From NCBI RefSeq assembly GCF_988243305.1, contig NZ_OZ547136.1: DNA of 64,000 bases. One strand, 5' to 3'. Within the stretch, counting starts at the first letter, position 1. Each line of letters starts with the position of its first letter. The position numbers were made by a program, and so were the translations under genes. This document shows, piece by piece, positions 20,436 through 43,796 of this stretch. The notes under the pieces were generated by a model. It was not told the DNA's origin and did no database searches. It was given only the letters and a program-made list of their open reading frames with translations.

Positions 20436-20453
20436 GTGTATTATCGGCGCAGA

Positions 20454-20482
20454 GCCCGGGCGAACCGGGCTTTGTTTTATTT
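20454..20482 (+). terminator. Putative rho-independent terminator of phoH
   Basis: gcccggg-cgaa-cccgggc hairpin followed by tttgttttattt. Confidence 0.55.
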
Positions 20483-20997
20483 CATTAACAGCAAAGACTT
20501 TCACTTCAGGTTAACGTTCTGGGGGGCGACTTTGAGCGTGTTGATAAGCTGAAATGAATTCTGGTTTAGATACTTTTACCAGGCATTTTTCGTCATAGCA
20601 CGCGACCAATGTAATGCCGCCAGCGCGGAGAGTTTTTTGCCTATCTTTTTCCAGCCATTCAACCTGTACAGGAGGTCTGGTGCCAATTTTGCGTATGAGG
20701 TTTAATCAACAATGGGCCAAAATTTGACTGACTGATTAACACCGAATATATTCTCCTGATTTTATTTTTTAGGGATAATATTAAAAATATAAGGTTAATC
20801 TTAATTAAATTTTTGGCTAATATTGTGTGTTGTTATTTTTTGTGGACGGCAAGCCGCAATGGCAAAATAGGTATGGTTGTAATAATCAAAACATGATACT
20901 AACTATATATAGATCGTTGAATTGTTGGCATGTAACTCGCTACAGCGAGTAGCGTTAGTAATGAAATATAATCAACATGGATAGGTGAAGATTAATT

Positions 20998-21684
20998 ATG
21001 AGCTTTATGGTTTTTGTAACTTGTTTGACAATTGCATTTGTCGCCGGTTTTGCTGTTGCCAGAAAATTGACACTCCGAAAAGTTGCCTCATCGGTAATCA
21101 TCACTAGATCGCAACCAGTCCCTTCCTCTGCAACTTCCCCTGCTGCTAAGGCGTCGACAAGGAGCTATACACCGCAGAAAACCTATCGTGACTCTCGTTG
21201 GCAAGAACGAGATGAGTTGTTCCAGGGAATGGTTGCCGAAGGTATTTTATTGGAAGGAAAAGAGTGGTTAATTACGCGTTGTGAAAAAATTTATTTTGAT
21301 AATCTGGAGAAATGGTTTGGACATTCTTGTCATATCCATTGCCAGGTCTCTCTGGGGCGCTTGATCAACTTTCCAGAACAACCCGAGTTTAGCGAAGAAG
21401 AAAGAAAGCGTTTCTTTGCAATTTATAATGGAATGGCAATGGATTATGTTCTGGTTTCAAAGAAGAACAATAAAATAGTCTGTGTTATTGAGCTGGATGA
21501 GCCGAGTCATGAAAGGGCAGATCGCATTATTCGTGACCGTTGGTTGAATACGATTATGACTATTGCACGGGTGCCTTTTGTACGAGCTTCTGTCACTAAA
21601 TTGGATGAAATCCCTCCGGTCTGGGATACCCGTGACAAAATTCGCCCATTAGCCGCGGCGACAAAGGGTGAACCGTTGCATTAA
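20998..21684 (+). CDS. Membrane-anchored DUF2726-like protein
   Basis: 228-aa ORF with N-terminal TM helix and a C-terminal region that I read as DUF2726-like (NFPEQPEF ... VIELDEPSHE); AT-rich promoter region upstream. Confidence 0.55.
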   Translation: MSFMVFVTCLTIAFVAGFAVARKLTLRKVASSVIITRSQPVPSSATSPAAKASTRSYTPQKTYRDSRWQERDELFQGMVAEGILLEGKEWLITRCEKIYFDNLEKWFGHSCHIHCQVSLGRLINFPEQPEFSEEERKRFFAIYNGMAMDYVLVSKKNNKIVCVIELDEPSHERADRIIRDRWLNTIMTIARVPFVRASVTKLDEIPPVWDTRDKIRPLAAATKGEPLH

Positions 21685-21691
21685 CTAAGTA

Positions 21692-21969
21692 CCCCGGTCA
21701 GGGCTTCTCATCTCCCCCGGTGTGTGCAATATACGAAAAAAAAGCCCGTACCTTCGTACGAGCTCTTCTTTAAAGATGGCGGTGAGGGGGGATTGACTCG
21801 CTTCGCTCGCCCTGCGGGCAGCCCGCTCACTGCGTTCACGGTCTGTCCAACTGGCTGTCGCCAGTTGTCGAACCCCGGTCGGGGCTTCTCATCCCCCTGT
21901 GTGTGCAATATACGAAAAAAAAGCCCGTACCTTCGTACGAGCTCTTCTTTAAAGATGGCGGTGAGGGGG
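21692..21969. repeat. Two ~99-bp near-identical direct repeats separated by ~81 bp
   Basis: Copies at ~21692–21790 and ~21872–21969; on the minus strand each carries a stem-loop followed by T8. Confidence 0.6.
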
Positions 21970-22129
21970 ACCGCCTGAAATAAATCTGACTTAATCCAGG
22001 GGTGTTATATAATTTCATTATAAACAATGTATTACACTTTTTGTTGTCCGATATTATCTAATGTATTCTTAGTGAAGCGAGAGACTAATGGCATACTGGA
22101 TGGCATACCAGAGTGACGGGAATTAGCGT

Positions 22130-23332
22130 ATGGCAGTATTGACGGATACGAAAGCAAGACATATCAAACCTGATGACAAACCATTGCCCCATGGGGGAAT
22201 TACCGGACTGACCCTTCATCCTTCTTCAGTAAAGGGGCGGGGGAAATGGGTTTTTCGTTATGTAAGTCCGGTGACACAAAAAAGACGTAATGCTGGATTG
22301 GGAACTTACCCAGAGGTCAGTATTGCTGAAGCTGCACGTACTGCCCGGATAATGCGAGAGCAACTTGCTGCAGGTGATGATCCTCTGGAGATTAAAAAGG
22401 CTGAATCTGAGAAAGTCGCTATCCCAACATTTGCCGATGCAGCCAGGCGTGTACATGCAGAACTGTCTCCTGGATGGGAAAATCCAAAGCATGTAAGGCA
22501 GTGGTTATCGACGCTTGAGAATTACGCGTTTCCTCAACTGGGAGCAAAAACGCTGGATTCGATTACGGCTGCGGACGTGGCAGAAACACTGCGTCCAGTC
22601 TGGTTAACCTTATCAGAAACGGCAAGCCGGGTTAAACAGCGCATTCATGTTGTTATGCAGTGGGGATGGGCGCACGGTTTTTGTGTAGCAAATCCTGTTG
22701 ATGTGGTTGACCATTTGCTTCCTCAGCAGACAAGAGGACGTGATGAACACCAACCCGCAATGCCCTGGAGGCAGTTACCGCTTTTTGTGGCGACCAGTGT
22801 GTATACCGATGAACCTTATAATGTTACCCGCGCACTGTTATTAATGGTGATACTTACAGCAACTCGCTCGGGCGAAGCCAGGGGAATGCGCTGGGCTGAA
22901 ATTGATTTTCATAAGCGGGTATGGACTATACCTGCAGAAAGAATGAAAGCTAGGCTACAGCATCGTGTTCCTTTATCCCGGCAGGCTATTTACATTCTGG
23001 AAAATATACGTGGCCTGCATGATGAACTGGTGTTCCCTTCACCCAGAAAGCAGCAGATCCTTTCCGATATGGTGTTGACAAGTTTTCTGCGTAAAAAGAA
23101 AGCCGTCAGTGACATTCCGGGGCGAGTTGCCACGGCACATGGTTTTCGCTCAACATTCAGGGACTGGTGTAGCGAACAGGGGTATTCGCGGGATCTGGCG
23201 GAAAGGGCGCTCGCTCATACGCTGAAAAATAAGGTTGAGGCGGCATATCATCGTACTGATCTACTGGAGCAGCGTGTACCGATGATGCAGGCATGGGCGG
23301 ATTATGTGATGTCTCAAATTGTGAATAAATAA
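22130..23332 (+). CDS. P4-type tyrosine integrase
   Basis: 400-aa ORF with arm-binding-type N-terminus and C-terminal catalytic region (HGFRSTF ... LAH ... Y) as in P4/CP4-57-type integrases. Confidence 0.85.
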   Translation: MAVLTDTKARHIKPDDKPLPHGGITGLTLHPSSVKGRGKWVFRYVSPVTQKRRNAGLGTYPEVSIAEAARTARIMREQLAAGDDPLEIKKAESEKVAIPTFADAARRVHAELSPGWENPKHVRQWLSTLENYAFPQLGAKTLDSITAADVAETLRPVWLTLSETASRVKQRIHVVMQWGWAHGFCVANPVDVVDHLLPQQTRGRDEHQPAMPWRQLPLFVATSVYTDEPYNVTRALLLMVILTATRSGEARGMRWAEIDFHKRVWTIPAERMKARLQHRVPLSRQAIYILENIRGLHDELVFPSPRKQQILSDMVLTSFLRKKKAVSDIPGRVATAHGFRSTFRDWCSEQGYSRDLAERALAHTLKNKVEAAYHRTDLLEQRVPMMQAWADYVMSQIVNK

Positions 23333-23518: not shown

Positions 23519-25336
23519 TCACTCCTGCTGAGACTGAATTATTCCTAGTGCGTCATAAATCAGTCTTCTGCGTAGTTTATTGTTTTTATCTGCACCATAT
23601 AACATAAATATATTTTCAACTTTTTCTTCAGGTGTTCTGAGATAATGGATAAGAAAGGTTATCATTCCAACACAATGGAATAAAGTGAATCCATCAAACA
23701 GGCTTATCAGGTTTCCTTTTTTTTCCCGTGTTGTAAGTATTTTTTCGCGGGTAAGAATATTTGCCAGTTCATGGGGGGCTGATATGTTTCTGCTGTCTAT
23801 AATGTCATTTATTTTACCAAGGGCTATATCAACTTCCTGTAATAGGTTATTTATCATAGCTGAGTGAATGTTATTGGTTTCATGTTCCTGACAGTTTATG
23901 AACTTATAAATCATTGAGTTATACAGAAATATTACTCTTCCTAATAAATATGTGTTTGTGTCATTTTGAAGACAGGACTCTGGGTATTCGTGATCCAGTG
24001 AAATAAGGTTAATGGACTCGCCCTGATAAGTCATAAAATAATTGATGTCATTTAATAATGCTCGGATATTTACATGATTTTTACTGAATTTTATTTTAAA
24101 TGCTATCTTTAGTATAGCAAACGCGGCAATGATAAATCCAAAAGGTAATTTCTCATAGTTCAGTTTATTGATGGTGCGATGAACACTTTCAGTCTTTCCT
24201 GAAGTAAGTTGTCTCAAACAGTTAACAAATTCTGTATAGCCATTTAAGACATAATGGCATGAAGAATCTTTTAAAGAGTTTTCTATGTTTTGTAATGTGA
24301 CGCCGTTGTTCAATGTATAAATGTAACCGCCAAAGACAATGTTTTCAATCTCAACGACACAATTTATTGTTTTTTGTTCAGGATAAAGATAAATATCAGA
24401 AATACTATAGTCTCGTATTGCGTCAATGGCATCCCACGATAATGCACTGTCAATTTTCAGTGTATAAAATGGTGAGTTCTCATTAGGAAAGTAATATATG
24501 TATTTGTTCAGTATATTCATTACATCTATTGGGTTGGTTAAATATAATAACTGGCATTCATATTCTGAAACTTCTCTTTCGCTTATCAGCATTTTATATA
24601 AAGTTGCCAGGGTGCTTGTTAATGAAGTTCGTCTTTCGAAAGCCAGTAATATAGTGAGATAATAACATGCAACCTGAACTTTATCTAAGTCAGAAATTAT
24701 TTTTTCCTTGTCTTCATTACTTAAATAAAGCAGATGTTTACAGGTTTCTTTGCATGTGTTGATAGTTGCGATAAGTTTTGTTTTTCCTGGTGTACTGTTT
24801 TTGCGAATATTACGAATGAATTCATATACGCCATCAAAGATATCTTTGAAATGCGCATTCGCTGGCGTGTATCCGGATAAACATAACTTAACGTAATTTC
24901 GCAGATATGTCCTTGCAGCATGATATATATCATCCTCATTATCCGGTATCTGAGTGAGAAAAGAATGAATATGATAGTAAAATGCCATCTCATTATCCGG
25001 GCGATATGTGTTCCTGATGTCGAGTGCGAGAATCATTGGTACAATGTCATTAAAATATTTTTGTTTTATTATTTGATGTGTTTTGTCTGTAAAAACAGAA
25101 TAGTGCATTAGCTTAACATAGAGATCTTCATATCTCCTAAATATAACTTTTCGTTGTTCTTTACTCAATACTTGTTCTTTATCAATAATGTTTATTAATT
25201 CATCAAACATGTCGCCCAGTGAATGTTGATGTGAGGAAAAATTTTTAATATTTCGGATGTCACGGCTATTCTGGTTTTTAGCCAGAACACCAAAACATGA
25301 AAAGACATCATACATTATAGTGATAAAATTATACAT
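23519..25336 (-). CDS. Hypothetical 605-aa orphan protein, strongly AT-rich
   Basis: Long uninterrupted ORF with no motif I recognise, directly downstream of the integrase. Confidence 0.6.
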   Translation of the reverse strand: MYNFITIMYDVFSCFGVLAKNQNSRDIRNIKNFSSHQHSLGDMFDELINIIDKEQVLSKEQRKVIFRRYEDLYVKLMHYSVFTDKTHQIIKQKYFNDIVPMILALDIRNTYRPDNEMAFYYHIHSFLTQIPDNEDDIYHAARTYLRNYVKLCLSGYTPANAHFKDIFDGVYEFIRNIRKNSTPGKTKLIATINTCKETCKHLLYLSNEDKEKIISDLDKVQVACYYLTILLAFERRTSLTSTLATLYKMLISEREVSEYECQLLYLTNPIDVMNILNKYIYYFPNENSPFYTLKIDSALSWDAIDAIRDYSISDIYLYPEQKTINCVVEIENIVFGGYIYTLNNGVTLQNIENSLKDSSCHYVLNGYTEFVNCLRQLTSGKTESVHRTINKLNYEKLPFGFIIAAFAILKIAFKIKFSKNHVNIRALLNDINYFMTYQGESINLISLDHEYPESCLQNDTNTYLLGRVIFLYNSMIYKFINCQEHETNNIHSAMINNLLQEVDIALGKINDIIDSRNISAPHELANILTREKILTTREKKGNLISLFDGFTLFHCVGMITFLIHYLRTPEEKVENIFMLYGADKNNKLRRRLIYDALGIIQSQQE

Positions 25337-30240: not shown

Positions 30241-30902
30241 ATTACAGTTGTATTAGGTATTAAAATTAAGTTTCTGTAAGTTGTTGGGAGGTGCTTGAGT
30301 TAATAGGCAGAAGAGGGCGGGGCGCTTTGTCATCAGTGTAGGGGACCCGAATTTCTGCCGTGGTACCTCAGTGGATCGGATACAGGTAACGAATATGGTT
30401 CATAAATCTGACAGTGATGAATTAGCTGCACTGAGGGCAAACATAACTTGAAGCTTATGGGATTGAATGGCGACGTAAACCGCAGAGTCCTGTGCAGTGC
30501 GTTTCCGTATTATCCACGGATGAGAAAGTTGCGTTATTTTGTCGACTGTTTCGCGGGCGTGATGATGTATGGGCCCTTCGATGGGAAAGCAAAACCAGCG
30601 GCAAATCAGGGTACTTGCGGGCCTGTGCTAACGAATGGCAGCCGGGAATAGCGGTAAACTCCGGATAAAATGTGGGGACTGCGCTCACCGTCAGTTGATC
30701 CCTGTATCTGATCTCATCATCTACCACTACACGGTTTAACGGGGCCGCGTCATCTCGGCGTTGCCCGATAAATTCTTTTCTACGTATAATAACCAGAATG
30801 AACGTGTAAAACACCATAGTATTCAGAACTATAAACATCGAAACCTGCCATATTGACCAGAATAAATGACCTTATTTTTACTGAAATTTAAGGAGAACAC
30901 CG

Positions 30903-33900
30903 TTGGAAGTAGAAATGTGGGATGGTGGCTTACAAGAACAGGAAGTATTGGCTATCGAGAAAATAAAAGCTGCTTTTTCAGTCAACGTATCTAAGCCTGA
31001 CAAGCCTTTCCGTAGCGGTTCAATTAGTGAGCAGCTAAAAAGCTATGGTTTTATCGGCAATGAAATGTTCCCTTGGAAAGGTTATGCAGGTTTTCGATTT
31101 GTTGAGGCAAAAAAAGAGGGGGAATTCGATTTAGTTATTGTAACACACTGCAACGTGATCATTGTTGAACTGAAAGACTGGAACCATCAGCCTGTAACCG
31201 CACGCGGAGATACTTGGTTTAAAGGCGATAAGAACATGGGGCGCTCGCCAGTAAGCGTGACTCGTAGCAAAAAATTCATGCTGGACAAAAAACTCAAGCG
31301 TCTGGTAGACCGTTTTACGAACAAAGGCTATATCCCGATTGTTCATTTTTTTGTTGTGATGACCGGCAATGCAGATTTCAGCGCGCTGCCGGAGGAACAA
31401 CGGCGCCATACGATCTCGTTAAAAGATTTCCTGAAGTTTGCCGATCGCGGGAGCTTCAATAACTATTTCAAACCGCACCCAGCTACCAAGGTTCTTAACA
31501 AGGATTTCCATCTTTTCGATGATTTGTTCCTAGGGCCTCAGACGGCACCAAAAGCCTTGAGAGTTAATGGCTATGAAGCTAATGATATGATTTTCGAACA
31601 TCCTAAAAAGGTGTATCGAGAATATCTGGCAAAATCTGAGATATCAACGAACAGCGAAGCGCTACTCAGAGTATGGAATTTTAGAAATATAACGGGAACG
31701 AAAGCGAATACCCCGGAAGGACGAGCTCAGATTGTTTCACGTGAGCGCGAAGTGTTACAGCACATCAATCACCAGAATCGTGACCTGTATAACCACTGTC
31801 TCAGGTCTTTGACGAGTTTTCAGAAAGACGAGGTGACGGCCGAGTATAGCGAAGTCTACGAAGTTCCGCCGGGTCATGTCCGGTTTAATGAGTTTATCGG
31901 AAAATATGGTAAGAACTTTTCTGATATGGACCGCTTGAATGTGGTGAAACTGCTCATTGCAAAGTTTAGTGATCTCCATGAGATGAAAATTGCGCACAGG
32001 GATGTCGCCGATCACAGTCTGTGGATTTCACCTTCAAAAGAAGTTGCTCTTTCGAACTTTATTTCGGCTTACCACCAGCCAGCCGGAACGGTTGGCGATT
32101 ACCGTAAGCTTTTATCCGTAGGTGCAGTCCACGTAAAAGACATGCTTGATAAGGGCGAGCTTACGCCTTTTCAGCAAGATGTTCATACTCTGGGCCTTGT
32201 CGCCTGGCACTTATTTAGCGGTATGCGCATGTCGCCAAAGAGTCTGGAGAAAGTACAGGACAACATGCTAAACAGCCAGCACTGGTATTCATCTGTATTA
32301 CGGGATGCCGTTGCCGCAAAATTCACTTCTGCAACAGAATTCTTTGATGCCCTGAAACAAGCCGAACCTGCTGGCAAGGATATTCCAACATTTGATGATA
32401 CTGAGCTTGACCCTTACCGACATGCTATCAATCACGCTCGTCAATACCCGGAAGACGATGGCTTTCAGTTTCAGGTCGAAACAGTCGACAAAGAAGTCTA
32501 TATCTCGAAAGGAAGGCTCGTGAAGGCTTGGCTGAATGTTGGGGGACAGGGATACGATCCGTCAATTAATTTCCAGGTTCTGAAGTTTTTAAAGCAGGTT
32601 GAGCGGCTTTCTTCAGTTAAAACAACGTATCTACCTCAAATTCGTGAATTCGGTATCGCATCAAAATCATCAAGCCTATATATGGTCACGGATCAGGTAC
32701 AGGGAGAAACCTGGGATAAAATAGCGGTCCCCGATGATGAAAAAATCGACCTCATTGGTAAGTTTGTCGCCGCCGTTGAGCACTTACATGGTCTGGGTGT
32801 TTCTCACGGGGACATCCACCCTGGCAATGTGATATTTGAGACACAGAGCCGTTTGCTTTTTCTCATCGATATCCCCGATTTTTCACCGTCCGGTGACGAA
32901 CCTAAAAATCACAGTTACAGCCCTGAATACATTGATAATTGTACTTCTTTTGAACGTGACAACTATGCAGTGATGAAGATGTCCTGCGAGTTGCTAGGCA
33001 TGTCATGGGGGCTGGAATCAGACATTTATCCGACAATCGCGAATGCTATCCGAGCAGAGCTGGAAGATCCGGTTTTTGGGTTTAAGGATTTAGGCCGCTT
33101 TAAAAAAGCGATAGATAGTAATGACCTGGTGCCAGAACAAGACCTGATAGAGATTACTGCAGGAAATGCCGATGAAATAATCTCTATTCTGCCTGATAAC
33201 GGGCATCTGTATGTCAAAGTTAAGTCAAATCCTAAAGCGCCAGCTGAAGTAAATGTGACTTTCTCTGGGATTGGTGGCAGTTTTACTGCGGTGTTCAACA
33301 AAGATCAGAAGACGCTGGTTCATGGCTTCAGGCCACGGGCTCGCGTCACAATTCGTAAGCAAGATATTGATGAAAGCCAGTTCGAAATTGATACTGGCAT
33401 CAAGATTATTCCCGGCAGTCCGCAGGATCTGTCGGCGTTGACAGTATTGCTTAATGAAGAAGAATCTTTTGCGCGGGCAATCGAGTTGATTGCCGCAACT
33501 GAAGATGTTCAGGTACAAGAGCCACTTACGCTTCAGCTAAAAGATACCTTTGCAAGGCTTGATAAGCAGACGCTTGAACCTTCTTTAAGAGAAGTGCTGG
33601 AAATCCCAACAGTGAAACTGTGGCGCGCCATTCTGGATACTGAAACAGAATCTTATCCAAACATTGAAATCAGCGGTGAAGTGGTCCCGGTTGCAGATGC
33701 TCATGGAGAGCTTCTTCTCCCTTACTCTGCTGATGTTGATCCACTCGGTGCTTTCAGAAGTAGTGATGAAGTCGAAGCCTTACAGGTCGATCAGGAAGGT
33801 GTTGAGCGATTTATTGGTGAAGTGTCACTTAAGAAGTCAGAGCTCAAAGAGATTCGTCTTGTCAAAGTTAGTTCAGCAGCCTTCAAGCTGAAGGATTCTG

Positions 33901-35873
33901 ATATTGTCTTCTTCCGTACAAGGCCGACTCGTGCATCTTATCAGAAACGTAAACGCGCACTGGAACGTCTCCTAGATCGAGAAAGTGTGCTGCCTGACTT
34001 AATTGACTTGTTCGATCCATCCTGCAAACAGGCGGCTCAAAATTATGGTATCACTCTCAGCGATACCGATTTTGCCAGATACGACCGTGAAGATCAGCAC
34101 GGAAACAAGATCAGTCTGAATGAACAGCAAAGAAAGGCGTTTAACAAACTGGTCAATAATGGCCCTCTCTCCCTGCTTCAGGGGCCACCGGGGACCGGTA
34201 AAACCGAGTTCATCGCGGCCTTTGTTCACTACCTGATCGAGAAACAGAATACCAAACGCATTTTACTGGTCAGCCAGTCACACGAGGCTGTGAATACAGC
34301 GGCCGAGCGTATCAGAAAGCATTGTTCCCGGCTTGGTACAGAGTTGGACGTTGTCAGGTTCAGCAACCGAGAGGGAGCCGTTTCCCCTGGCTTAAAAGAT
34401 GTGTACTCACACGCAATCACAACAGAGAAGCGCGAACTCTTCAATGCTGAAATTAAGTACCGTGTTGAAGCATTGAGTGAAGCTATTGGTCTGGAGCCGG
34501 GATTTATTTCGGGTGTTGTTCTTGCAGAGCTCAATTTGTTCAGACAAATCGATCACCTTGAGAAATTGCTCTATCAGGTTAACAATTTAACGGATTCAAA
34601 TGAGAGCAATGAACTGAAAGATATTGCAGTCGAACTCGATTTTTCCATCCGCTCTAAGCTGAGTCAGGAGTATGGGATTAACTTGGACAATGGCGTGAAG
34701 GTCTCAGCAGCAAAAGACATTCTGATTTCCAAGCTATGTACAGAGTATGGTGTCAGACCTGATGAGGCAAGACGAGTAAAAGCATTAGCTAAAATATCCC
34801 GTGATATGCAGGATGCTATGTCGGGAGAGCGAGTGAACCTGGACGAGTTTTATTCGCGCTCCAGGCAGTTAGTGGCTGGCACATGCGTTGGTATTGGACA
34901 AGGGCACATTGGCATTCAGGAGAATATCTATGACTGGGTGATTATTGATGAGGCGGCGCGCTCGATTTCAAGTGAGCTGGCCATTGCAATGCAGTCAGCC
35001 CGGCGTGTCCTGTTGGTGGGTGACCACATGCAGCTTCCTCCATTGTACTCAGATGCCCACAAGGCGGCATTAGCGAGGAAGCTGGGTATCAATAACTCCC
35101 GCACTGAAATTGACGAGGTATTACGAAGTGACTTTGCCCGAGCCTTCAACTCTGCTTATGGTGCGCAGACGAGTGCAGCTTTGATGACCCAGTATCGTAT
35201 GGCTCCACCGATTGGTAATCTCGTATCGAAGACGTTTTATGACGGGAAGCTTCTGAATGGAGTACGGGCAATTCCGGATGTCTATCAGCAAGCTCCGGAA
35301 GCGTTACGTAGCGTTGTAACCTGGCTTGATACTGCTAATCAGGGCCACCGAGCACATCATCTTGAAGATCGCGGAACAAGCATTTACAACCGATGTGAAG
35401 CTGACGAGATTATTTCTGTTCTTAAACAGGTGTCAGAGAATGAAGAATTTGTCGCTAAGCTTTCAAAACTTGTTAGCAAAGATGAAGCCGCTATCGGCGT
35501 GATATGTATGTATGCCGAACAAAAGCGGTTACTCCGTCAGAAATTCAATCAGGAAATCTGGAGCGAGGGATTTAAGGACATTGTTAAAATTGACACTGTT
35601 GACAGTTATCAGGGAAAGGAAAATCGGATCATTATCCTGTCACTGACGCGTTCGGATAAGCAGCATAGCCCAGGTTTCTTACGCGTTCCAAACCGTATAA
35701 ATGTCGCGATGTCACGCGCAATGGATCGACTGTTGATTGTGGGTAATGCCGATATCTGGAAGGGAAACAATAAAGAATTGCCATTAGGCTACGTTGTAAG
35801 TTATATGGCTGAGCGAGGTCAGGAAGCTGGATACAGGTTCCTCTCTGCTCAGCAGGGAGGCAAAAAGAAATGA
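30903..35873 (+). CDS. Giant multidomain protein: NERD-like nuclease region, two protein-kinase-like regions, UPF1-like SF1 helicase (candidate defence effector)
   Basis: 1656-aa ORF; aggaga SD 6 nt before the TTG start (alternative ATG at 30915); FDLVIVTHCNVIIVELKDW; IAHRDVADHSLWI and VSHGDIHPGNVIF...LIDIPDF; helicase motifs GPPGTGKT, VIIDEAARS, LLVGDHMQLPP, VDSYQGKE, RINVAMSRA. Confidence 0.8.
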   Translation: MEVEMWDGGLQEQEVLAIEKIKAAFSVNVSKPDKPFRSGSISEQLKSYGFIGNEMFPWKGYAGFRFVEAKKEGEFDLVIVTHCNVIIVELKDWNHQPVTARGDTWFKGDKNMGRSPVSVTRSKKFMLDKKLKRLVDRFTNKGYIPIVHFFVVMTGNADFSALPEEQRRHTISLKDFLKFADRGSFNNYFKPHPATKVLNKDFHLFDDLFLGPQTAPKALRVNGYEANDMIFEHPKKVYREYLAKSEISTNSEALLRVWNFRNITGTKANTPEGRAQIVSREREVLQHINHQNRDLYNHCLRSLTSFQKDEVTAEYSEVYEVPPGHVRFNEFIGKYGKNFSDMDRLNVVKLLIAKFSDLHEMKIAHRDVADHSLWISPSKEVALSNFISAYHQPAGTVGDYRKLLSVGAVHVKDMLDKGELTPFQQDVHTLGLVAWHLFSGMRMSPKSLEKVQDNMLNSQHWYSSVLRDAVAAKFTSATEFFDALKQAEPAGKDIPTFDDTELDPYRHAINHARQYPEDDGFQFQVETVDKEVYISKGRLVKAWLNVGGQGYDPSINFQVLKFLKQVERLSSVKTTYLPQIREFGIASKSSSLYMVTDQVQGETWDKIAVPDDEKIDLIGKFVAAVEHLHGLGVSHGDIHPGNVIFETQSRLLFLIDIPDFSPSGDEPKNHSYSPEYIDNCTSFERDNYAVMKMSCELLGMSWGLESDIYPTIANAIRAELEDPVFGFKDLGRFKKAIDSNDLVPEQDLIEITAGNADEIISILPDNGHLYVKVKSNPKAPAEVNVTFSGIGGSFTAVFNKDQKTLVHGFRPRARVTIRKQDIDESQFEIDTGIKIIPGSPQDLSALTVLLNEEESFARAIELIAATEDVQVQEPLTLQLKDTFARLDKQTLEPSLREVLEIPTVKLWRAILDTETESYPNIEISGEVVPVADAHGELLLPYSADVDPLGAFRSSDEVEALQVDQEGVERFIGEVSLKKSELKEIRLVKVSSAAFKLKDSDIVFFRTRPTRASYQKRKRALERLLDRESVLPDLIDLFDPSCKQAAQNYGITLSDTDFARYDREDQHGNKISLNEQQRKAFNKLVNNGPLSLLQGPPGTGKTEFIAAFVHYLIEKQNTKRILLVSQSHEAVNTAAERIRKHCSRLGTELDVVRFSNREGAVSPGLKDVYSHAITTEKRELFNAEIKYRVEALSEAIGLEPGFISGVVLAELNLFRQIDHLEKLLYQVNNLTDSNESNELKDIAVELDFSIRSKLSQEYGINLDNGVKVSAAKDILISKLCTEYGVRPDEARRVKALAKISRDMQDAMSGERVNLDEFYSRSRQLVAGTCVGIGQGHIGIQENIYDWVIIDEAARSISSELAIAMQSARRVLLVGDHMQLPPLYSDAHKAALARKLGINNSRTEIDEVLRSDFARAFNSAYGAQTSAALMTQYRMAPPIGNLVSKTFYDGKLLNGVRAIPDVYQQAPEALRSVVTWLDTANQGHRAHHLEDRGTSIYNRCEADEIISVLKQVSENEEFVAKLSKLVSKDEAAIGVICMYAEQKRLLRQKFNQEIWSEGFKDIVKIDTVDSYQGKENRIIILSLTRSDKQHSPGFLRVPNRINVAMSRAMDRLLIVGNADIWKGNNKELPLGYVVSYMAERGQEAGYRFLSAQQGGKKK

Positions 35874-37306
35874 TATCTGATAACAAAGTTACCTATCATG
35901 AGGTTGACTTCCTGCTGCCAGCACAGAGGTTTAACATTCAGTTTTCCTATGTTTCCCAGAAGGGGCTGCCATTTATCCGGGAGTTTGTGCTGAGACTTGT
36001 TCATGTAGCTTCGATGAGCAAAGCACAAATAGCAACCTATTTCGGCCTGACCCACCGTGAGACAGAGGAGGCGATTTCCGATCTTGTGCAGCGTGGCGAA
36101 TTGACGCTCTCCTCAGACGGCAGACTGGCCTTAACAGACAAATCAAATGGCTATTTTTCAGAGGTTGGCGAGATACCGCATCTTTCAACTATTCAGGACA
36201 GTGGCTGTACCTTATCCTTTGATTTAGCCACATTTAGTTGCTTCAGCAACCAGGCTTTTCAGGACCACTGGAGGGGAGGGGTAACATTAAAGGTTGATGA
36301 CAACAACATTTCTCAAAGTGAGAAACTGGTTGAGAAGCACTTTCAATACCAGTTTAATCAAATCCTGGATAAAGGTTACCTGTCTCACCTGCAGGTTCAG
36401 GTCGGAAAAGAACAACCTTCTATCTATACCGTTAATTCTGTTAATAAGCTGCGGCAAATACCACTCCGTTTAACAACGGAATTTAAAATGGATAGCGATG
36501 GTAAGGCTGTCGAGCGTGAAGACTATGAACAGTTAAATAGTTCGGAATGTGTTCATGAGTTAATGGCTGTTGAGATAGCCAGGTTATCACGGCATAACAA
36601 TACCATGAGTATTTTTAAGGCCATGCAATCCATTAACGATGACCTTACGCTTAAGCTGTTTGACTCTAAAACGAATCGACTTAATCCGTTGTTTATCAAA
36701 GATATGCAAGCACTGGAAGAATACTCGTCCTCAGGCAGAACGACTTTTTTAGGTCCGGTTTATTCTAAAAACAACTGGGAAAAGCTGCAGAAAGCTCTGG
36801 CACCAGCGCTCAATCAGCGTATCAGAGATAAAACTGATTATGGAGGTAGCCCGTTCATCTGGGTGGCACCATCAGATCCCTACTGGTCAAAAAGCATTCG
36901 ATTTATCTCAAGCCTGAGCAATTTTCTTAGCAAGTCGGCTACGAAGGATAAGCAGCTGTATAAACCGGTGCTGTACGTACCTGTCCGGGATGCAGCTGAT
37001 GCTCGGGTTGCCAGACAGTGGAAGTATGAACTTGGGCAATTCCATGAGTACGCTAAAGGACTAGTTGAGGGGCTGTTAGATGGTAATGTTGAGATCCTTC
37101 ATCTTGAGGATGAGTTATCTGCCGTTATCTATCATATTTCTCAACCCGAAATATTGCCTGTAACGATGCCACTGGGCTTTATCACAACGAACAAAGAAAC
37201 GGTTAAGATTATTGGTACTCTGGTTACTGAATATATCAAAGGCACCACTGGTTTTGATAAGTTTCATGACTGTGGCGCAATTTCGGCAATGATTAAGAAA
37301 GGTTGA
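35870..37306 (+). CDS. Hypothetical 478-aa partner protein with possible N-terminal winged-helix region
   Basis: Start overlaps the upstream stop (ATGA); no PLD HxK(x)4D motif seen. Confidence 0.7.
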
Positions 37307-38218: not shown

Positions 38219-38545
38219 ATGACTAAAAATACTCGTTTTTCCCCCGAAGTCCGTCAACGGGCAGTCCGTATGGTTCTGGAAAGTCAGAGCGAATATGACT
38301 CACAATGGGCGACAATTTGTTCCATTGCTCCAAAGATTGGCTGTACGCCGGAGACTCTGCGTGTCTGGGTTCGCCAGCATGAGCGGGATACCGGGGGCGG
38401 TGATGGAGGGCTCACCACCGCTGAACGTCAGCGTCTGAAAGAGCTGGAACGTGAAAATCGTGAACTGCGCCGCAGTAACGATATCCTTCGCCAGGCTTCC
38501 GCTTATTTTGCGAAGGCGGAGTTCGACCGCCTCTGGAAAAAATGA
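38219..38545 (+). CDS. IS3-family transposase OrfA (copy 1)
   Basis: 108-aa HTH/leucine-zipper OrfA ([19 protein letters not shown]...). Confidence 0.85.
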
Positions 38546-39432
38546 TGCCACTGCTGGATAAGCTGCGTGAGCAGTACGGGGTCGGACCGCTATGCAGCGA
38601 ACTGCATATTGCCCCGTCAACGTATTACCACTGTCAGCAACAGCGACATCATCCGGATAAACGCAGTGCCCGTGCGCAGCGCGATGACTGGCTGAAGAAA
38701 GAGATACAGCGCGTATACGATGAAAATCACAAGGTATACGGTGTGCGTAAAGTCTGGCGTCAGTTGTTACGGGAAGGTATCAGAGTGGCCAGATGCACTG
38801 TGGCACGTCTCATGGCGGTTATGGGACTTGCCGGTGTTCTCCGGGGTAAAAAGGTCCGTACGACCATCAGCCGGAAAGCCGTTGCCGCAGGCGACCGCGT
38901 AAACCGTCAGTTCGTGGCAGAACGACCTGACCAGCTGTGGGTGGCTGATTTTACTTACGTCAGCACATGGCGGGGCTTCGTCTATGTGGCGTTCATCATT
39001 GATGTGTTTGCCGGATACATCGTGGGGTGGCGGGTCTCATCGTCCATGGAAACGACATTCGTGCTGGATGCACTGGAGCAGGCGTTATGGGCCCGTCGAC
39101 CGTCCGGCACGGTCCATCACAGTGATAAAGGTTCTCAGTATGTATCGCTGGCCTACACACAGCGGCTTAAGGAAGCCGGATTACTGGCATCAACAGGAAG
39201 TACAGGCGACTCGTATGACAACGCGATGGCGGAGAGCATCAATGGTCTTTACAAAGCGGAGGTAATACACCGTAAGAGCTGGAAAAACCGTGCAGAAGTG
39301 GAACTGGCCACACTCACGTGGGTGGACTGGTATAACAATCGACGATTGCTGGAAAGGCTGGGCCATACTCCTCCGGCAGAAGCAGAAAAAGCTTATTATG
39401 CTTCCATCGGAAACGATGATCTGGCAGCCTGA
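38542..39432 (+). CDS. IS3-family transposase OrfB, DDE integrase core (copy 1)
   Basis: 296-aa ORF overlapping orfA, typical programmed-frameshift arrangement. Confidence 0.85.
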
Positions 39433-41001
39433 GTTCACAGATAAAACACTCTCCAGGAAACCCGGGGCGGTTCATACAGCTCCTGCAGCTGGGTGCCGGT
39501 CGCGAAGTAGCTCCAGACCTGATCGGCAAAGTCGCTGTCCGTTTGCACCTTCTCTAACCCGTAATAGGCATTCTCGGCGCTGACTATCCCGTGGTACATC
39601 AGCGAGTTCAGCGGGAACAGAGGGCCTTTACGGACAATGGAGCGGTACGTCTCGGCATCGCGGTAGGTCATCCACTGCTGCACCGGCGTACCGGAACCAT
39701 ACAGGTTGATGTCATCTCCCTGACGCCAGATAGAATCAGCGTAGAACAGCCAGGACGGGCTGGCGTCGGTGCCGGTGGTCAGGTTGATAAACAGATTCGG
39801 GGTTGCGCTGCGCATATTGTGCAGCAGGGCGATTGATGCATCGAAATCTGAGGCGAACGAGCTGCCTTTGATATGCGAACTGGCGTTACCCATCCCGTCG
39901 AGTTTAAACGAGGTGATGTGCTCGTTTTTGATAAGCTTGATGATCCGCTCATTGAAGTTTTTAAAGTAGTTCGCTCCCGACAGCGCCAGTTTGCCGTCCA
40001 CGGTTTCGAACCCATACTCTTTTGCATGCGAAACGCGAACGTCGCGCGGTTTGTTGTAGCCACCCCACGGTGAAAGCCATAGCCCAACGGAGCTGTGCAG
40101 GCTGTCGGCTTTCTCCCGTACTTTGCTAAAACCGTTTCTGAATGCCGTGCCAAATAGCCAGCGTCCGGTCAGATCGTCCCAGCCATCATCCAGCAGGAAG
40201 GCGTCCAGCGCCACGCCGCGGCCCGTAATGAACTCCTTGTTCCATTCGTCCATACGCCCCAGCACATCCTGTTCAGTGTAGGGAGTGAAAAAGCCGATAT
40301 CCATCCAGCTGTTGTAGTGCAGATAAGGCTTGTATGGGCGTGGACGTACGTCATTAATAAACTGGTTCACGCTGCGGCGCAGCTGGCTGGTTTCCGGGAA
40401 AGTGCCGAACCAGGTAGTAAAGCTGACCGGCGCCTCTGGCTGAATCGGCGTTTTCAGCTCTACGTTGAGATTGGTGGTGGCTTCATAGGCGTAGGTATTC
40501 ACGATCGGTTTATCCGGCAGGATAAAGAACGAGTCCGCAACGATCGGAGAGCTATTGATTGCGCCGTCTACGTAAGGGGCCTGAGACTGTTTTTGGGTCG
40601 GGAAGAAGGTGATTTTAGCGACGTCGCGCGGCTGCCCCACGGCGGCAATGGTGTAGCCGATGTTGGCGTATTTTCCCTTCACCAGGTTCAGCTTCACCGT
40701 GACGTTAAAATCCGGGTGCGTAAAGTCGATGACAATCGCGTTATCCTGCTTTTCGACGTGCTTGATTTTGAAATCCGCGGTGTGGATTTTACTCTCATCC
40801 GGCAGCGTCAGAAAGAACAACTCCTGCGGCGTGAGCGGATGGTTAGCCTTGTTGTCCTTCACCACGACCGTTGAGTTTGTATCATCAAACAAGAGGGCAA
40901 TATTGTCGTTATTGAGCGCGTAGTTTGCTGCCGCTGCACCATGAGAAACGCAGAGAGCCAGCAGTGAGAGAGTGAGCACTTTCTTCATCGGGGTAAGATC
41001 C

Positions 41002-42180
41002 TTATTTGTCATTTTTCAGCATTCGGTTAATGGACTGCTCCAGCCAGTAGCGCTGGGTGCCAAAATTAATCCGCAGGTAGTTTTCGCCGTTTTGTACATA
41101 GTGGCTGCCGTCTTCTATGACCACGCCTGCCTGCCGTGCGAAATGTTGGGTTAGCTGCGTTGCGCTACGCTCATCCGCGCTTACGTCTATCCACGCCAGA
41201 TACGACGATTCCGGGTTCATCATCTTCCACGCCGGGAAGTGGGTCTGGAGGGCATCCGCCAGATACCGGGCGTTGCCTTGCAGATAACCGTTCAGCGCGT
41301 CGAGCCAGGGCAGACCGTGTTGATAGGCCAGAATGATTCCCCATACCCCGAACAAATTGGGCGAGGTAATGGAGTTCTTCTCGAGCTGCTGGCGGAAGCG
41401 CTGGCGCAGCGAGTCGTCTGGAATCATGGAGTAGGAGGTTTTCAGCCCGCCCAAATTGAACGCTTTGTTGGGCGATGTGAGCACGATCAGGTTGTCCTGG
41501 GCGGCACAGCCAGAGGTGAGACAACTGGCGAATTTGCCATCCAGAATGTGTTCAGCGTGAACCTCATCGACCACCAGAATCGTGCCGTAGCGTTGACAGA
41601 GATCGGACACCTGGCGTATTTCTTTCTCGCGCCAGATCCTGCCGGACGGGTTATGTGGCGAGCAGAAGAACCACAGCGTTGGACGGTGGGTTTTGAGCTG
41701 TTCTTCTATCAGATTAAAATCAAGCTGATAGCGGTTTTCCTCCACGCGCAGCGGGTTAGCCAGTACCTGCACGCCCTGGCGCTGTGCCGCCATCGCAAAA
41801 GGATCGTAGACCGGCGTGTTCATCATCACGCTGTCACCCGGTTTGCAGAATGCCTGAACCGTGTAGTGCAGCGTGGATACGGTGCCGTAGGTCAACGTGA
41901 TCCACGACTTTTCCACCTCAACCTGATGACGTTTGCGCTGGAAGGCAATGACCGCGTCGTAGAATTCGTCAAAGCACCAGGTATAACCAAAGGTGCCGTG
42001 CTCCACGATGCGCCGGAAACCGTCAATCACCGCAGGTGGTGAGGTGAAATCCATATCGGCTATCCATAGGGGGATAAAGGACTCCGGGACGTCACCGAAA
42101 CGCGAGCAAACAAAGGTATGGTCCCATTTACGGCACTTATCATTTTGACGCTCAATGATTTTGTCGAAATCAAACATCAC
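41002..42180 (-). CDS. MalY/PatB-like PLP-dependent C-S lyase
   Basis: 392-aa ORF with aminotransferase class I/II signature (SPHNPSG ... SPNKAFN). Confidence 0.7.
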   Translation of the reverse strand: MMFDFDKIIERQNDKCRKWDHTFVCSRFGDVPESFIPLWIADMDFTSPPAVIDGFRRIVEHGTFGYTWCFDEFYDAVIAFQRKRHQVEVEKSWITLTYGTVSTLHYTVQAFCKPGDSVMMNTPVYDPFAMAAQRQGVQVLANPLRVEENRYQLDFNLIEEQLKTHRPTLWFFCSPHNPSGRIWREKEIRQVSDLCQRYGTILVVDEVHAEHILDGKFASCLTSGCAAQDNLIVLTSPNKAFNLGGLKTSYSMIPDDSLRQRFRQQLEKNSITSPNLFGVWGIILAYQHGLPWLDALNGYLQGNARYLADALQTHFPAWKMMNPESSYLAWIDVSADERSATQLTQHFARQAGVVIEDGSHYVQNGENYLRINFGTQRYWLEQSINRMLKNDK

Positions 42181-42188
42181 TCCTCCTG

Positions 42189-43796
42189 TTAAATTAAGGC
42201 TTCAATGCCGGTTTTGACGCTCTGTACCTGCGGTCCGATGATCACCTGCACGCTATGCGCATCAAGCATCACCACTGACAACGCGCCTGCCGCTTTCAGC
42301 GCCTGCTGATCGATAAGGCCCATATCTTTCACCACCAGACGCAAGCGGGTAATACAGTTATCAAGCGACTCAATGTTCTCTTTACCTCCGAGCGCACGTA
42401 GGATAAGCTCGTGATCGTATTTTGATTTTCCGCGCGCGCGGGTGTTCGCCTCGACGGCTTGCTGTGCCCCCTGAACATCCACCTCGCGGCCCGGCGTTTT
42501 GATGTTGTGTTTGAGGATGTACCAGCGGAAGACAAAGAAGTAGATGGCAAACCAGGCAATACCAACCGGGAACAGCAGATACCATTTGGTCGACATTCCC
42601 TGCATCACGCCGAAAATCAGCAGATCCAGAATGCCGCCGTCGGTATTGCCGATGGTCACTCCCAGCAGGGCCATTACCATCAGCGCCAGGCCAGACATGA
42701 CGATATGGAAGGCGTAAAGCGCGGGGGCGATAAACAGGAACAGGAACTCAATCGGCTCTGAAATACCGGTGACGACGGAAACCAGCACGCCGGAAAGCAG
42801 CAACCCCTTAATGACCGGCCGATTTTCCGGACGCGCGGTGCGGTAGATGGCGTAAGCCACGGCGGGTAAACCGAAGATAAAGGTCGGCATAAACCCTTGT
42901 GACAGAAACGCGGTAACGTGCGGGCTAAACGGCAGGCCGGCTTTGAGCTCGGCGTAGAAGATATTCAGCGCCCCGGCGACCTCATGGCCATTTACCATTT
43001 CAATGCCGCCTGCTGGGGTAAAACGCACCATCGCCAGCAGGATGTGGTGCAGACCAAAAGGTTTAAGCAGCAGCACGCCTACGCCGTAGAGGAAGGGGCC
43101 GAAAACGCTGGTGCTCTGGATAATATGCCCAATGCCCGCGATGCCCAGCGCGACGTATTCCCACAGCATGGGAATGAACAGACCCACCAGCGACAGGGTG
43201 AGCGCGGTAATAATCGGCACGAAACGAATGCCGCTAAAGAAGGCGAAGGCGTCATGCAGAACCGTGTCCTGAAAACGGTCATGCAGAAAATAGGTGATAA
43301 CCCCAACCACAATGCCACCTAATACCCCCATCTCCAGGGTTTGAATGCCCAGCACGATCGATTGTCCTACCTGTTTCATGGTGGCGGGGTCGGCAAGCTG
43401 GTGGGTAGCCGTCAGGTAATAATTAATGCTCATGTTCATCAGCATGTAGCCAACGAACCCGGCAAAGGCAGCGACCGCTTTGTTGCGCTTGGCAAGCCCC
43501 ATGGGGATCGCCATGGCAAACATCAGCGGCAGATAGGTAAAAGCAAAGCCACCGACCATAGCGATAAAGCCAAAGGTCAACTGGGTAAATTCGCCGCCCA
43601 GAAAGGGAAAACTAGTAATGGTGGAAGGGCTGGTGACTGAACTACCGATACCCAGCAGCAATCCCATAAAGGCAAGAAGCGAAACCGGGAACATAAAGGT
43701 TTTCCCCAGACTTTGTAAAAACTCCCATAATTTTGATTTAAAAGATTTTTTTTGTGTCATATAGGGCTCCTCGAATTTTAGGATAATGGAAGGCAC
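42189..43796 (-). CDS. PTS glucose/maltose-family EIICB component
   Basis: 535-aa polytopic ORF with C-terminal EIIB motif NCITRLR. Confidence 0.8.
   Translation of the reverse strand: MPSIILKFEEPYMTQKKSFKSKLWEFLQSLGKTFMFPVSLLAFMGLLLGIGSSVTSPSTITSFPFLGGEFTQLTFGFIAMVGGFAFTYLPLMFAMAIPMGLAKRNKAVAAFAGFVGYMLMNMSINYYLTATHQLADPATMKQVGQSIVLGIQTLEMGVLGGIVVGVITYFLHDRFQDTVLHDAFAFFSGIRFVPIITALTLSLVGLFIPMLWEYVALGIAGIGHIIQSTSVFGPFLYGVGVLLLKPFGLHHILLAMVRFTPAGGIEMVNGHEVAGALNIFYAELKAGLPFSPHVTAFLSQGFMPTFIFGLPAVAYAIYRTARPENRPVIKGLLLSGVLVSVVTGISEPIEFLFLFIAPALYAFHIVMSGLALMVMALLGVTIGNTDGGILDLLIFGVMQGMSTKWYLLFPVGIAWFAIYFFVFRWYILKHNIKTPGREVDVQGAQQAVEANTRARGKSKYDHELILRALGGKENIESLDNCITRLRLVVKDMGLIDQQALKAAGALSVVMLDAHSVQVIIGPQVQSVKTGIEALI

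Follow-up and report, generated by a model that had tools for sequence, protein, structure and literature searches.

Mokosh type I was named and tested as an anti-phage system in 2022. The system of Escherichia coli SEC470 (construct SG199) was cloned with its native promoter, and its phage defence is marked 'v' or 'Verified' in Tables S2 and S8 of Millman et al. (2022). Mutations in the helicase and in the 'PLD active site' of Mokosh are presented in Fig. 4 of that paper, the accessible text of which leaves the constructs bearing them unnamed. Mokosh type I is listed in the literature among the systems with a NERD domain, together with Nhi-like systems (PMC10952713), and the arrangement of NERD, pseudokinase and kinase had earlier been described for BREX type 2 PglW and for DndF (PMC12839542; PMC4365076). 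Our literature search found neither a paper on a mechanism for Mokosh type I nor an experiment on the allele described here or on single domains of its subtype, and the system resisted purification in a recent survey (10.1101/2025.07.10.664194). In the HIDEN-SEQ study, T4 Alt and glucosyltransferases counter 'Mokosh type I' ('Type_I_A') of UPEC strain CFE331. Neither in the stretch of 64,000 nucleotides analysed here (hereafter the window) nor in the loci L001-L004 was a match found to prDP0298 and prDP0299, the primers used to clone the CFE331 system, which may be of another subtype than the operon described below. If the subtypes were the same, this evasion would suggest a mechanism directed at DNA and sensitive to protein ADP-ribosylation.

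Identification of the operon as Mokosh type I

The operon consists of two intact, overlapping genes on the + strand of the window; mkoA (30915..35873), encoding a helicase-kinase-NERD protein of 1652 aa from the ATG at 30915, and mkoB (35870..37306), encoding a partner protein of 478 aa. An in-frame TTG at 30903 would give MkoA 4 aa more. In PADLOC, MkoA matched the Mokosh type I profile PDLC03921 with E=0 and 2212 bits (residues 1-1652 against profile positions 1-1603 of 1607), and MkoB matched PDLC03923 with E=1.9e-151 (residues 3-472 against positions 4-452 of 454). The upstream DNA, MkoA (1652 aa) and MkoB (478 aa) of SEC470, as far as printed, all match the window, and over the 399 printed residues of SEC470 the identity is 92.5% for MkoA and 98.2% for MkoB. 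The allele of E. coli TUM1886 equals every printed SEC470 residue, including the first 399 aa of MkoA, and the full-length identities to it were 1611/1652 for MkoA (97.5%), 471/478 for MkoB (98.5%) and 98.3% for the DNA. The operons of the window and SEC470 agree in gene lengths, upstream region, gene order and overlap. Against the TUM1886 allele, MkoA has 41 substitutions, of which 27 fall around the NERD domain (aa 1-200), and MkoB has 7. The insertion site in the chromosome and the flanking IS elements of SEC470-type operons vary between strains.

MkoA carries a COG1112/Upf1-like SF1 helicase domain together with a Ser/Thr kinase domain, the latter as given for the helicase protein of Mokosh type I by Millman et al. 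(2022), and a separate mkoB lies adjacent in the operon, covered by its profile over the full length and joined to mkoA by an ATGA overlap. The HxK(x)4D active site of a PLD-family MkoB is absent from the window protein; it is also absent from the verified SEC470 MkoB as printed, which is labelled 'HTH' only in Table S2 of Millman et al. (2022). Hence, an HxK(x)4D site is not a feature of the SEC470-type subtype, and membership in Mokosh is here based on near-identity to a verified member. We are virtually certain that the operon is Mokosh type I mkoA-mkoB and a natural allele of the SEC470 system, and an anti-phage function is predicted from the same near-identity. Taken together with the mechanism proposed below, we consider this explanation as a whole highly probable.

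A sequence-only reading of this DNA had instead proposed an undescribed anti-phage system with a new single-polypeptide architecture, related to but distinct from Mokosh and Nhi. The generic RefSeq names, the lack of an NCBIfam family for MkoB and the divergence of the verified type I system of E. coli H10407, which is similar in the helicase core only (23-34% identity) and whose MkoB has no BLASTP match to that of the window, could be read in its favour. Against this stand the full-length PADLOC matches of both proteins, the near-identity to the SEC470 construct listed as verified in Table S8 of Millman et al. (2022), and the NERD domain already listed for Mokosh type I, while the NERD-pseudokinase-kinase order was described in PglW and DndF. 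That reading had itself named a clear match to a named system as a ground for giving it up; such a match exists, and its claim therefore fails, leaving an undescribed system extremely improbable. It counted Mokosh among the related systems without seeing that the operon is itself Mokosh, and its account of a two-gene operon with a coupled 478-aa gene, carried as cargo on an island with a P4-type integrase, agrees with the intact genes, with the ATGA read in the sequence and with the setting described below. The operon is thus a known system and not a new one.

Domain organisation of MkoA

Residues 1-750 of MkoA comprise a predicted NERD nuclease, an atypical kinase and an active kinase, fused to an Upf1-like helicase. 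The NERD PD-(D/E)xK nuclease domain (31071..31319, + strand) was detected by Pfam PF08378 with E=1e-6, and its putative catalytic residues are D72, E85 and K87. In 42 homologues, with identities down to ~24%, D72 and K87 were found in 42/42, and position 85 was Glu in 37 and Asp in 5. The first kinase-like domain (31542..32369, ~aa 210-485) is an atypical or pseudokinase domain of the PglW/MAD6 type; together with the NERD domain it is covered by the NCBIfam models for MAD6 kinase (E=2.3e-31) and PglW (E=5.7e-24), and PADLOC PglW matched MkoA with E=4.1e-27. H361, R362 and D363 of this domain are conserved, the D+5 position has no Asn and S380 takes the place of the DFG Asp, while R252, E277 and D422 are invariant in the homologue alignment.

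The second kinase domain (32412..33119, ~aa 500-735) is Hanks/Bud32-like and predicted to be active, with K537, D633, N638 and D652 conserved across the MkoA family. This bears on an alternative in which Mokosh type I acts via phosphorylation, the helicase sensing phage nucleic acid and the kinase phosphorylating host or phage proteins to cause abortive infection, with the nuclease dispensable. The complete and conserved catalytic set in a Hanks-type fold is consistent with this, as are the matches of the domain to PD-T4-6 defence kinase profiles and the finding that the kinase activity of PglW is essential for Pgl defence (PMC4365076). However, no phosphorylation target is known, and the NERD catalytic triad is as conserved as the catalytic set of the second kinase, which argues for selection on the nuclease activity. 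We therefore regard a mechanism by phosphorylation with a dispensable nuclease as unlikely.

The middle region of MkoA (33120..34115, ~aa 736-1067) has no assigned domain; Pfam gave no match there, and the region lies within the alignment of MkoA to its profile PDLC03921 and, starting at residue 882, also within that to PDLC03920. It is followed by the Upf1-like SF1 helicase core (34116..35750), which was matched by Pfam AAA_11 (E=3.5e-38) and AAA_12 (E=2.7e-42) and by the IGHMBP2-family helicase model TIGR00376 (E=6.2e-50). The Walker A motif GPPGTGKT occupies aa 1090-1097 with Lys 1096, and the helicase motifs are nearly invariant in the homologue alignment. The earlier description of an N-terminal NERD-like nuclease, two kinase-like regions and a UPF1-like SF1 helicase at the C-terminus was thus borne out, every motif it quoted being present, and its view of the nuclease as a NERD rather than a PLD domain is a fair description of the SEC470-type subtype.

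MkoB retains a PLD fold without the HKD motif

MkoB has a winged helix-turn-helix (35957..36154, ~aa 30-95) and a C-terminal PLD-fold domain (36587..37303), the active-site motif of which is degenerate (H422-I-S424 ... G436). The whole protein lacks an H.K tripeptide, and of the active-site motif only H422 and G436 are kept, both of them invariant, so that MkoB may have some catalytic activity left, perhaps in altered form. The fold is PLD-like, with F13 and FAM83B among the best structural matches; both are PLD-fold proteins that are not known to have the full HKD motif. A sequence search of PDB chains with the MkoB profile gave nothing meaningful (best E=0.064). When the window-type and PLD-type MkoB families were compared by hhalign, only the N-terminal aa 4-126 aligned (E=0.0059, probability 6%), and the tentative assignment of H422 as the catalytic His is therefore based on fold and motif spacing.

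These features have to be weighed against a second alternative, in which MkoB is still the main nuclease of Mokosh type I, using its PLD fold and the invariant His422, possibly in dimeric form or with MkoA contributing a residue, and in which the NERD domain would serve as a back-up or suicidal nuclease, a role that has been proposed for it in PglW. However, MkoB lacks both Lys and Asp of the HKD motif, no Pfam PLD family matched MkoB whereas PF13091 was found in every H10407-type homologue, the best structural matches include F13 and FAM83B, and the 'HTH' label of the SEC470 MkoB in the table of Millman et al. (2022) carries no reference to PLD. A main nuclease role of MkoB thus appears fairly unlikely, and the absence of the HKD motif suggests that NERD may be the working nuclease in the SEC470-type subtype.

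Genomic setting and expression signals

The operon is present in 352/5426 complete E. coli genomes (~6.5%) and is cargo on an island with a P4-type integrase. Its neighbours on the island include frameshifted or partial genes (a TOTE primase fragment, IS1 and an rRNA methyltransferase fragment), and IS3 lies just downstream of the operon. Such surroundings could suggest that the window allele is a decayed, non-functional copy; however, both reading frames are intact with the lengths of the verified allele, all conserved catalytic residues are present, and, across the operon, 336/353 matching records reach an identity of 99% or more, making decay very improbable. ARAGORN found no attachment-site tRNA beside the integrase in the window, the sole tRNA match of Rfam in the window being at 54195. 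No significant PADLOC match to BREX, MADS or other defence partners was found among the 15 neighbouring ORFs checked, the matches being marginal and confined to phoH (E 3.6e-4 to 8.1e-4). In RefSeq the two products are named 'AAA domain-containing protein' and 'hypothetical protein', and these generic names hide a published and verified defence system.

A consensus scan identified a promoter-like site upstream of mkoA, TTGCCC-18-TATAAT (30761..30790, + strand, 10/12 matches), which is only suggestive since the region has no excess of such sites over shuffled sequence. The site falls within the native-promoter fragment cloned by Millman et al. (2022), which corresponds to 30631-37306 of the window; where the beginning of that fragment is printed, its identity to the window is 94.9%. 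Between the genes, a GGGAGG ribosome-binding site and the ATGA stop/start overlap were read from the sequence (35856..35873, + strand).

A possible mechanism of SEC470-type Mokosh

We propose, tentatively, that MkoA is sensor and effector in one. The Upf1-like SF1 helicase at the C-terminus would load either on RNA of the phage or on intermediates of replication or transcription, and by using ATP it would signal that it is engaged, which in turn would release the N-terminal effector module, a triad of NERD, pseudokinase and active Ser/Thr kinase as in PglW and some DndF. The NERD PD-(D/E)xK nuclease would cut nucleic acid, and the targets of the active second kinase would be the kinase itself or proteins of the phage or the host. 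MkoB, keeping the winged helix and the PLD fold but having lost the Lys and Asp of HKD, would serve MkoA mainly as a regulator or as a partner that binds nucleic acid, and would not be the main nuclease, and the ATGA translational coupling may keep the two proteins in proportion. Taken as a whole, this mechanism is plausible, if somewhat short of probable.

It is also possible, though rather doubtful, that the SEC470-type subfamily has changed its effector, the PLD partner having become a degenerate nucleic-acid-binding pseudo-nuclease while the PglW/DndF-type triad cuts and signals. We did not find this stated for SEC470-type Mokosh in the literature searched. If true, SEC470-type Mokosh would be closer to a helicase-triggered PglW module than to a pair of helicase and PLD of the piRNA-like kind.

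Comparison with known systems

Assignments to BREX type 2 and to MADS were considered and rejected. The BREX type 2 (PglW) model matched residues 57-441 only and scored 84 bits, where the cut-off is 990, and no PglX, PglZ or BrxD/BrxHI partners were found in the 15 neighbouring ORFs. For MADS, the MAD6 kinase model NF047741 matched residues 68-460 only, with 109 bits against a cut-off of 460, and no mad genes were found in the neighbourhood; a mad8 profile matched weakly in the helicase region of MkoA (E=2.2e-11). PglW profiles match MkoA over residues 57-446, and PglW has the same N-terminal order at approximate positions 12-130, 195-490 and 537-704 (PMC12839542; PMC4365076). The C-terminal half of PglW has other, sensor-like domains, where MkoA instead has an SF1 helicase, and of the PglW partners PglX, PglY and PglZ none was found near the operon.

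Nhi and Nhi-like proteins combine a NERD-type nuclease and an SF1 helicase in one polypeptide, as MkoA does. Nhi is, however, a single gene without kinase domains or an MkoB partner, and the 25 best PADLOC matches of MkoA include no Nhi profile. Mokosh type II was rejected since the operon has two genes and the MkoC profile matches the helicase part only (residues 1341-1639); MkoC is a single polypeptide with helicase and intact PLD, without NERD or kinase domains. In the piRNA pathway of animals, which pairs MOV10L1 with PLD6/Zucchini, the HKD motif of Zucchini is intact, in contrast to the window MkoB without HKD.

The type I system of E. coli H10407 (ETEC; PADLOC PDLC03920 for MkoA and PDLC03922 for MkoB) resembles that of the window in having a kinase and an Upf1-like helicase followed by an overlapping HTH partner gene beside a P4-type integrase, and the helicase cores and MkoB N-termini are homologous. 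However, the H10407 MkoA has 1215 aa and is entered as 'Kinase-Helicase' in Table S2 of Millman et al. (2022), and the alignment of PDLC03920 with the window MkoA does not begin until residue 882, so that no NERD region is matched by the H10407-type profile. The H10407 MkoB, of 602 aa, has two intact HKD motifs (HAKIIVCD and HAKILSWD) and matches Pfam PLDc_2, whereas the window MkoB has one PLD-fold domain. In conclusion, the verified Mokosh type I systems of SEC470 and H10407 are far less alike than their common name suggests, the SEC470-type subtype having an intact NERD domain and a PglW-like kinase pair next to a 'PLD' partner without the HKD motif, and the two subtypes should be treated separately in studies of Mokosh mechanism and in parallels with the piRNA pathway.

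The operon is an allele of Mokosh type I

Two intact ORFs were found on the plus strand where the sequence-only reading had placed them, the first (mkoA) at 30903..35873, encoding 1656 aa from a TTG, and the second (mkoB) at 35870..37306. The ATGA overlap that it described is present at 35870-35873, common to the mkoA stop and the mkoB start and preceded 8 nt upstream by GGGAGG, and every peptide motif that it quoted was recovered in the translated ORFs. RefSeq and IMG start mkoA at the ATG at 30915, 12 nt after the TTG, giving 1652 aa with the N-terminus MWDGG. The products, named 'AAA domain-containing protein' and 'hypothetical protein' in RefSeq, were identified as MkoA and MkoB of Mokosh type I because PADLOC profiles match both proteins over their whole length (MkoA: PDLC03921, E=0, 2212 bits, with residues 1-1652 aligned to positions 1-1603 of the 1607 in the profile; MkoB: PDLC03923, E=1.9e-151, full length). 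Among 5426 complete E. coli genomes, 352 carry the operon.

The name Mokosh was introduced by Millman et al. (2022; bioRxiv 10.1101/2022.05.11.491447); type I systems encode the helicase and the second protein in separate genes, and their helicase protein has a Ser/Thr kinase domain as well. The text of that preprint describes protection of E. coli by three Mokosh systems and loss of defence upon mutation of the helicase ATP site, and does not name the mutated constructs. Table S2 lists construct SG199, from E. coli SEC470, as 'Mokosh type I' and verified, with a 1652 aa MkoA ('Kinase-Helicase') and a 478 aa MkoB ('HTH'), and expression of this allele under its native promoter protected E. coli (10.1101/2022.05.11.491447). 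Window positions 30631-31025 are 94.9% identical to the printed start of the SG199 cloned DNA, and over the 399 initial residues printed for SEC470 the window proteins are 92.5% (MkoA) and 98.2% (MkoB) identical. E. coli TUM1886 carries an allele equal to the printed SEC470 residues over the first 399 aa of both proteins; against this allele, MkoA is identical at 1611/1652 and MkoB at 471/478 positions, and the 6404-nt operon aligns gap-free at 98.3% identity. The operon in the window is thus one allele of a system, Mokosh type I, that had already been published and verified by experiment. Hence, the reading of the locus as a defence operon was right, this being a Mokosh type I system near-identical to a verified member, while the claim of an undescribed system fails on the clear match to a named one, the outcome that the sequence-only reading had itself set against its claim.

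The differences from the SEC470/TUM1886-type MkoA are clustered, with 27 of the 41 within aa 1-200 (30915-31514), in and around the NERD domain, including 20 within aa 101-200, and only 14 in the remaining 1450 residues; recombination or diversifying selection at the nuclease end could account for this. Two different assemblies seem to go by the name 'SEC470': two IMG taxon ids exist for it, and the RefSeq entry NZ_CP007594.1 has a length (5,153,435 bp) and hit coordinates exactly as those of ETEC H10407 (NC_017633.1). The SG199 fragment was matched at 100% by TUM1886 only, and NZ_CP007594.1 gave no such match.

Domain architecture of MkoA

Profile searches bore out the proposed NERD, kinase and SF1 helicase modules, with NERD (PF08378) at E=1e-6, Pkinase at E=1e-5 in the second kinase region and weakly (0.03) in the first, and AAA_11 and AAA_12 at E=3.5e-38 and E=2.7e-42, respectively. 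In an alignment of 42 homologues, the most distant at about 24% identity, the PD-(D/E)xK signature of the NERD domain is complete (D72 in 42/42; E85 in 37 and replaced by Asp in 5; K87 in 42/42). The first kinase-like region (about aa 210-485) keeps H361-R362-D363 and a subdomain-IX-like D422, lacks the Asn at D+5 and has Ser380 in place of the DFG Asp, and judged by these residues it is atypical and probably inactive. In the second (about aa 500-735) the catalytic set is complete (K537 40/42, D633 39/42, N638 39/42, D652 42/42).

The stretch comprising NERD and the first kinase is also covered by the NCBIfam and PADLOC profiles of PglW (BREX type 2) and MAD6 (the MADS kinase). PglW has NERD, an atypical/inactive kinase and an active kinase at residues 12-130, 195-490 and 537-704 (PMC4365076), an order described both in PglW and in a subset of DndF (PMC12839542), and the table of a 2023 review gives NERD as a Mokosh type I domain (PMC10952713). 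The architecture of MkoA is therefore not new, contrary to what had been proposed.

A probable degenerate motif in MkoB

No Pfam match and no NCBIfam family were found for MkoB. The tripeptide H.K is absent throughout its sequence, which therefore cannot carry the PLD motif HxK(x)4D. An AlphaFold2 model built from 35 homologues is confident over aa 240-478 (pLDDT 80-95). Two residues, H422 and G436, do not vary across the family, and they lie 14 residues apart, as do the His and the Gly/Thr position of the second HKD motif in PLD-type MkoB. We infer from these residues a degenerate motif, in which the His would be kept and the Lys and Asp lost. MkoB could still be the nuclease via the invariant H422, an explanation to be weighed against the missing H.K tripeptide. 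The anatomy of MkoB is the one place where our analysis adds to the known picture.

The island and its neighbourhood

As the sequence-only reading had supposed, the operon is island cargo: it lies in a low-GC stretch (35-47%) with a P4-type integrase upstream (22130..23332), and the upstream genes are YfjI-family and YfjJ/YagK-type in the RefSeq annotation of identical loci. The core gene adjoining the integrase-mkoAB island is phoH in the window (19371-23332 compared), clpA in E. coli MS 200-1 and ycdU in E. coli 3090; ARAGORN found no tRNA gene, a candidate attachment site, in the whole window. Directly after the integrase, where the GC content of the island is lowest (about 35%), a 605-aa ORF on the minus strand (23519-25336) is uncharacterised cargo without a match in Pfam, NCBIfam, PADLOC or PHROGs; MS 200-1 and 3090 have it at the same position as a RefSeq 'hypothetical protein', and the TUM1886 island has a hypothetical protein of similar size. 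Directly upstream of mkoA (about 30395-30730), identical loci carry in RefSeq an N-terminal piece, broken by a frameshift, of a 'TOTE conflict system archaeo-eukaryotic primase domain' protein, and the SG199 clone takes in part of this piece.

About 0.9 kb downstream of mkoB lies an IS3-family element (38219-39432) with an ALIL frameshift pseudoknot (Rfam RF01497, 120 bits); MS 200-1 and 3090 lack the element at this site, and a second ALIL match of identical score lies at 58468-58584. Downstream of the island, a malX-type PTS gene, a MalY/PatB-type gene and a 525-aa ORF occupy 39435-43796 on the minus strand. Longer versions of this last ORF are annotated 'enterotoxin' or 'alpha-galactosidase' in RefSeq in other strains, and it appears to be shortened here, beside the IS3 element.

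Proposed mechanism

The Upf1-like helicase may sense phage RNA or replication intermediates, as hypothesised by Millman et al. (10.1101/2022.05.11.491447), and its engagement would release the N-terminal effector triad of MkoA. NERD would then cut nucleic acid and the active kinase would phosphorylate itself or targets in a PglW-like manner, while MkoB may bind nucleic acid through a winged helix and a PLD-fold domain and regulate or target MkoA. In PglW the kinase Lys is required for defence (PMC4365076). There are two rivals to this scheme: phosphorylation alone could be the effector step, or MkoB could act as the nuclease via H422. We regard the scheme of helicase sensing, triad release, two effectors and a regulatory MkoB as tentative, its chances falling somewhat short of even.

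A literature search found no mechanistic paper on Mokosh type I, and its purification failed in a 2025 survey (10.1101/2025.07.10.664194). A 2025 preprint reports that phage Alt and glucosyltransferases counter the type I Mokosh of strain CFE331; the primers used to clone that system match none of the compared loci, and it is thus not assignable to the SEC470-type subtype.

Comparison with known systems

Membership of BREX type 2 or MADS was excluded, as scores fell far short of the cut-offs set for these families and 15 neighbouring ORFs included no partner genes, and Mokosh type II was excluded because the operon has two genes. No Nhi profile was among the 25 best PADLOC matches of MkoA. The other verified Mokosh type I system, that of H10407, differs from the one in the window. 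Its MkoB has 602 aa, two intact HKD motifs and a Pfam PLDc_2 domain, unlike the window MkoB, and Table S2 labels it 'HTH-PLD' as against 'HTH' for SEC470 (Millman, 10.1101/2022.05.11.491447). The alignment of the PADLOC profile for H10407-type MkoA to the window MkoA begins only at residue 882 of the latter, and the two proteins share 23-34% identity, confined to the helicase core. It is conceivable, although we lean against it, that in the SEC470-type subtype the nuclease role has passed from a PLD partner, now degenerate, to the NERD domain of a PglW-like triad.
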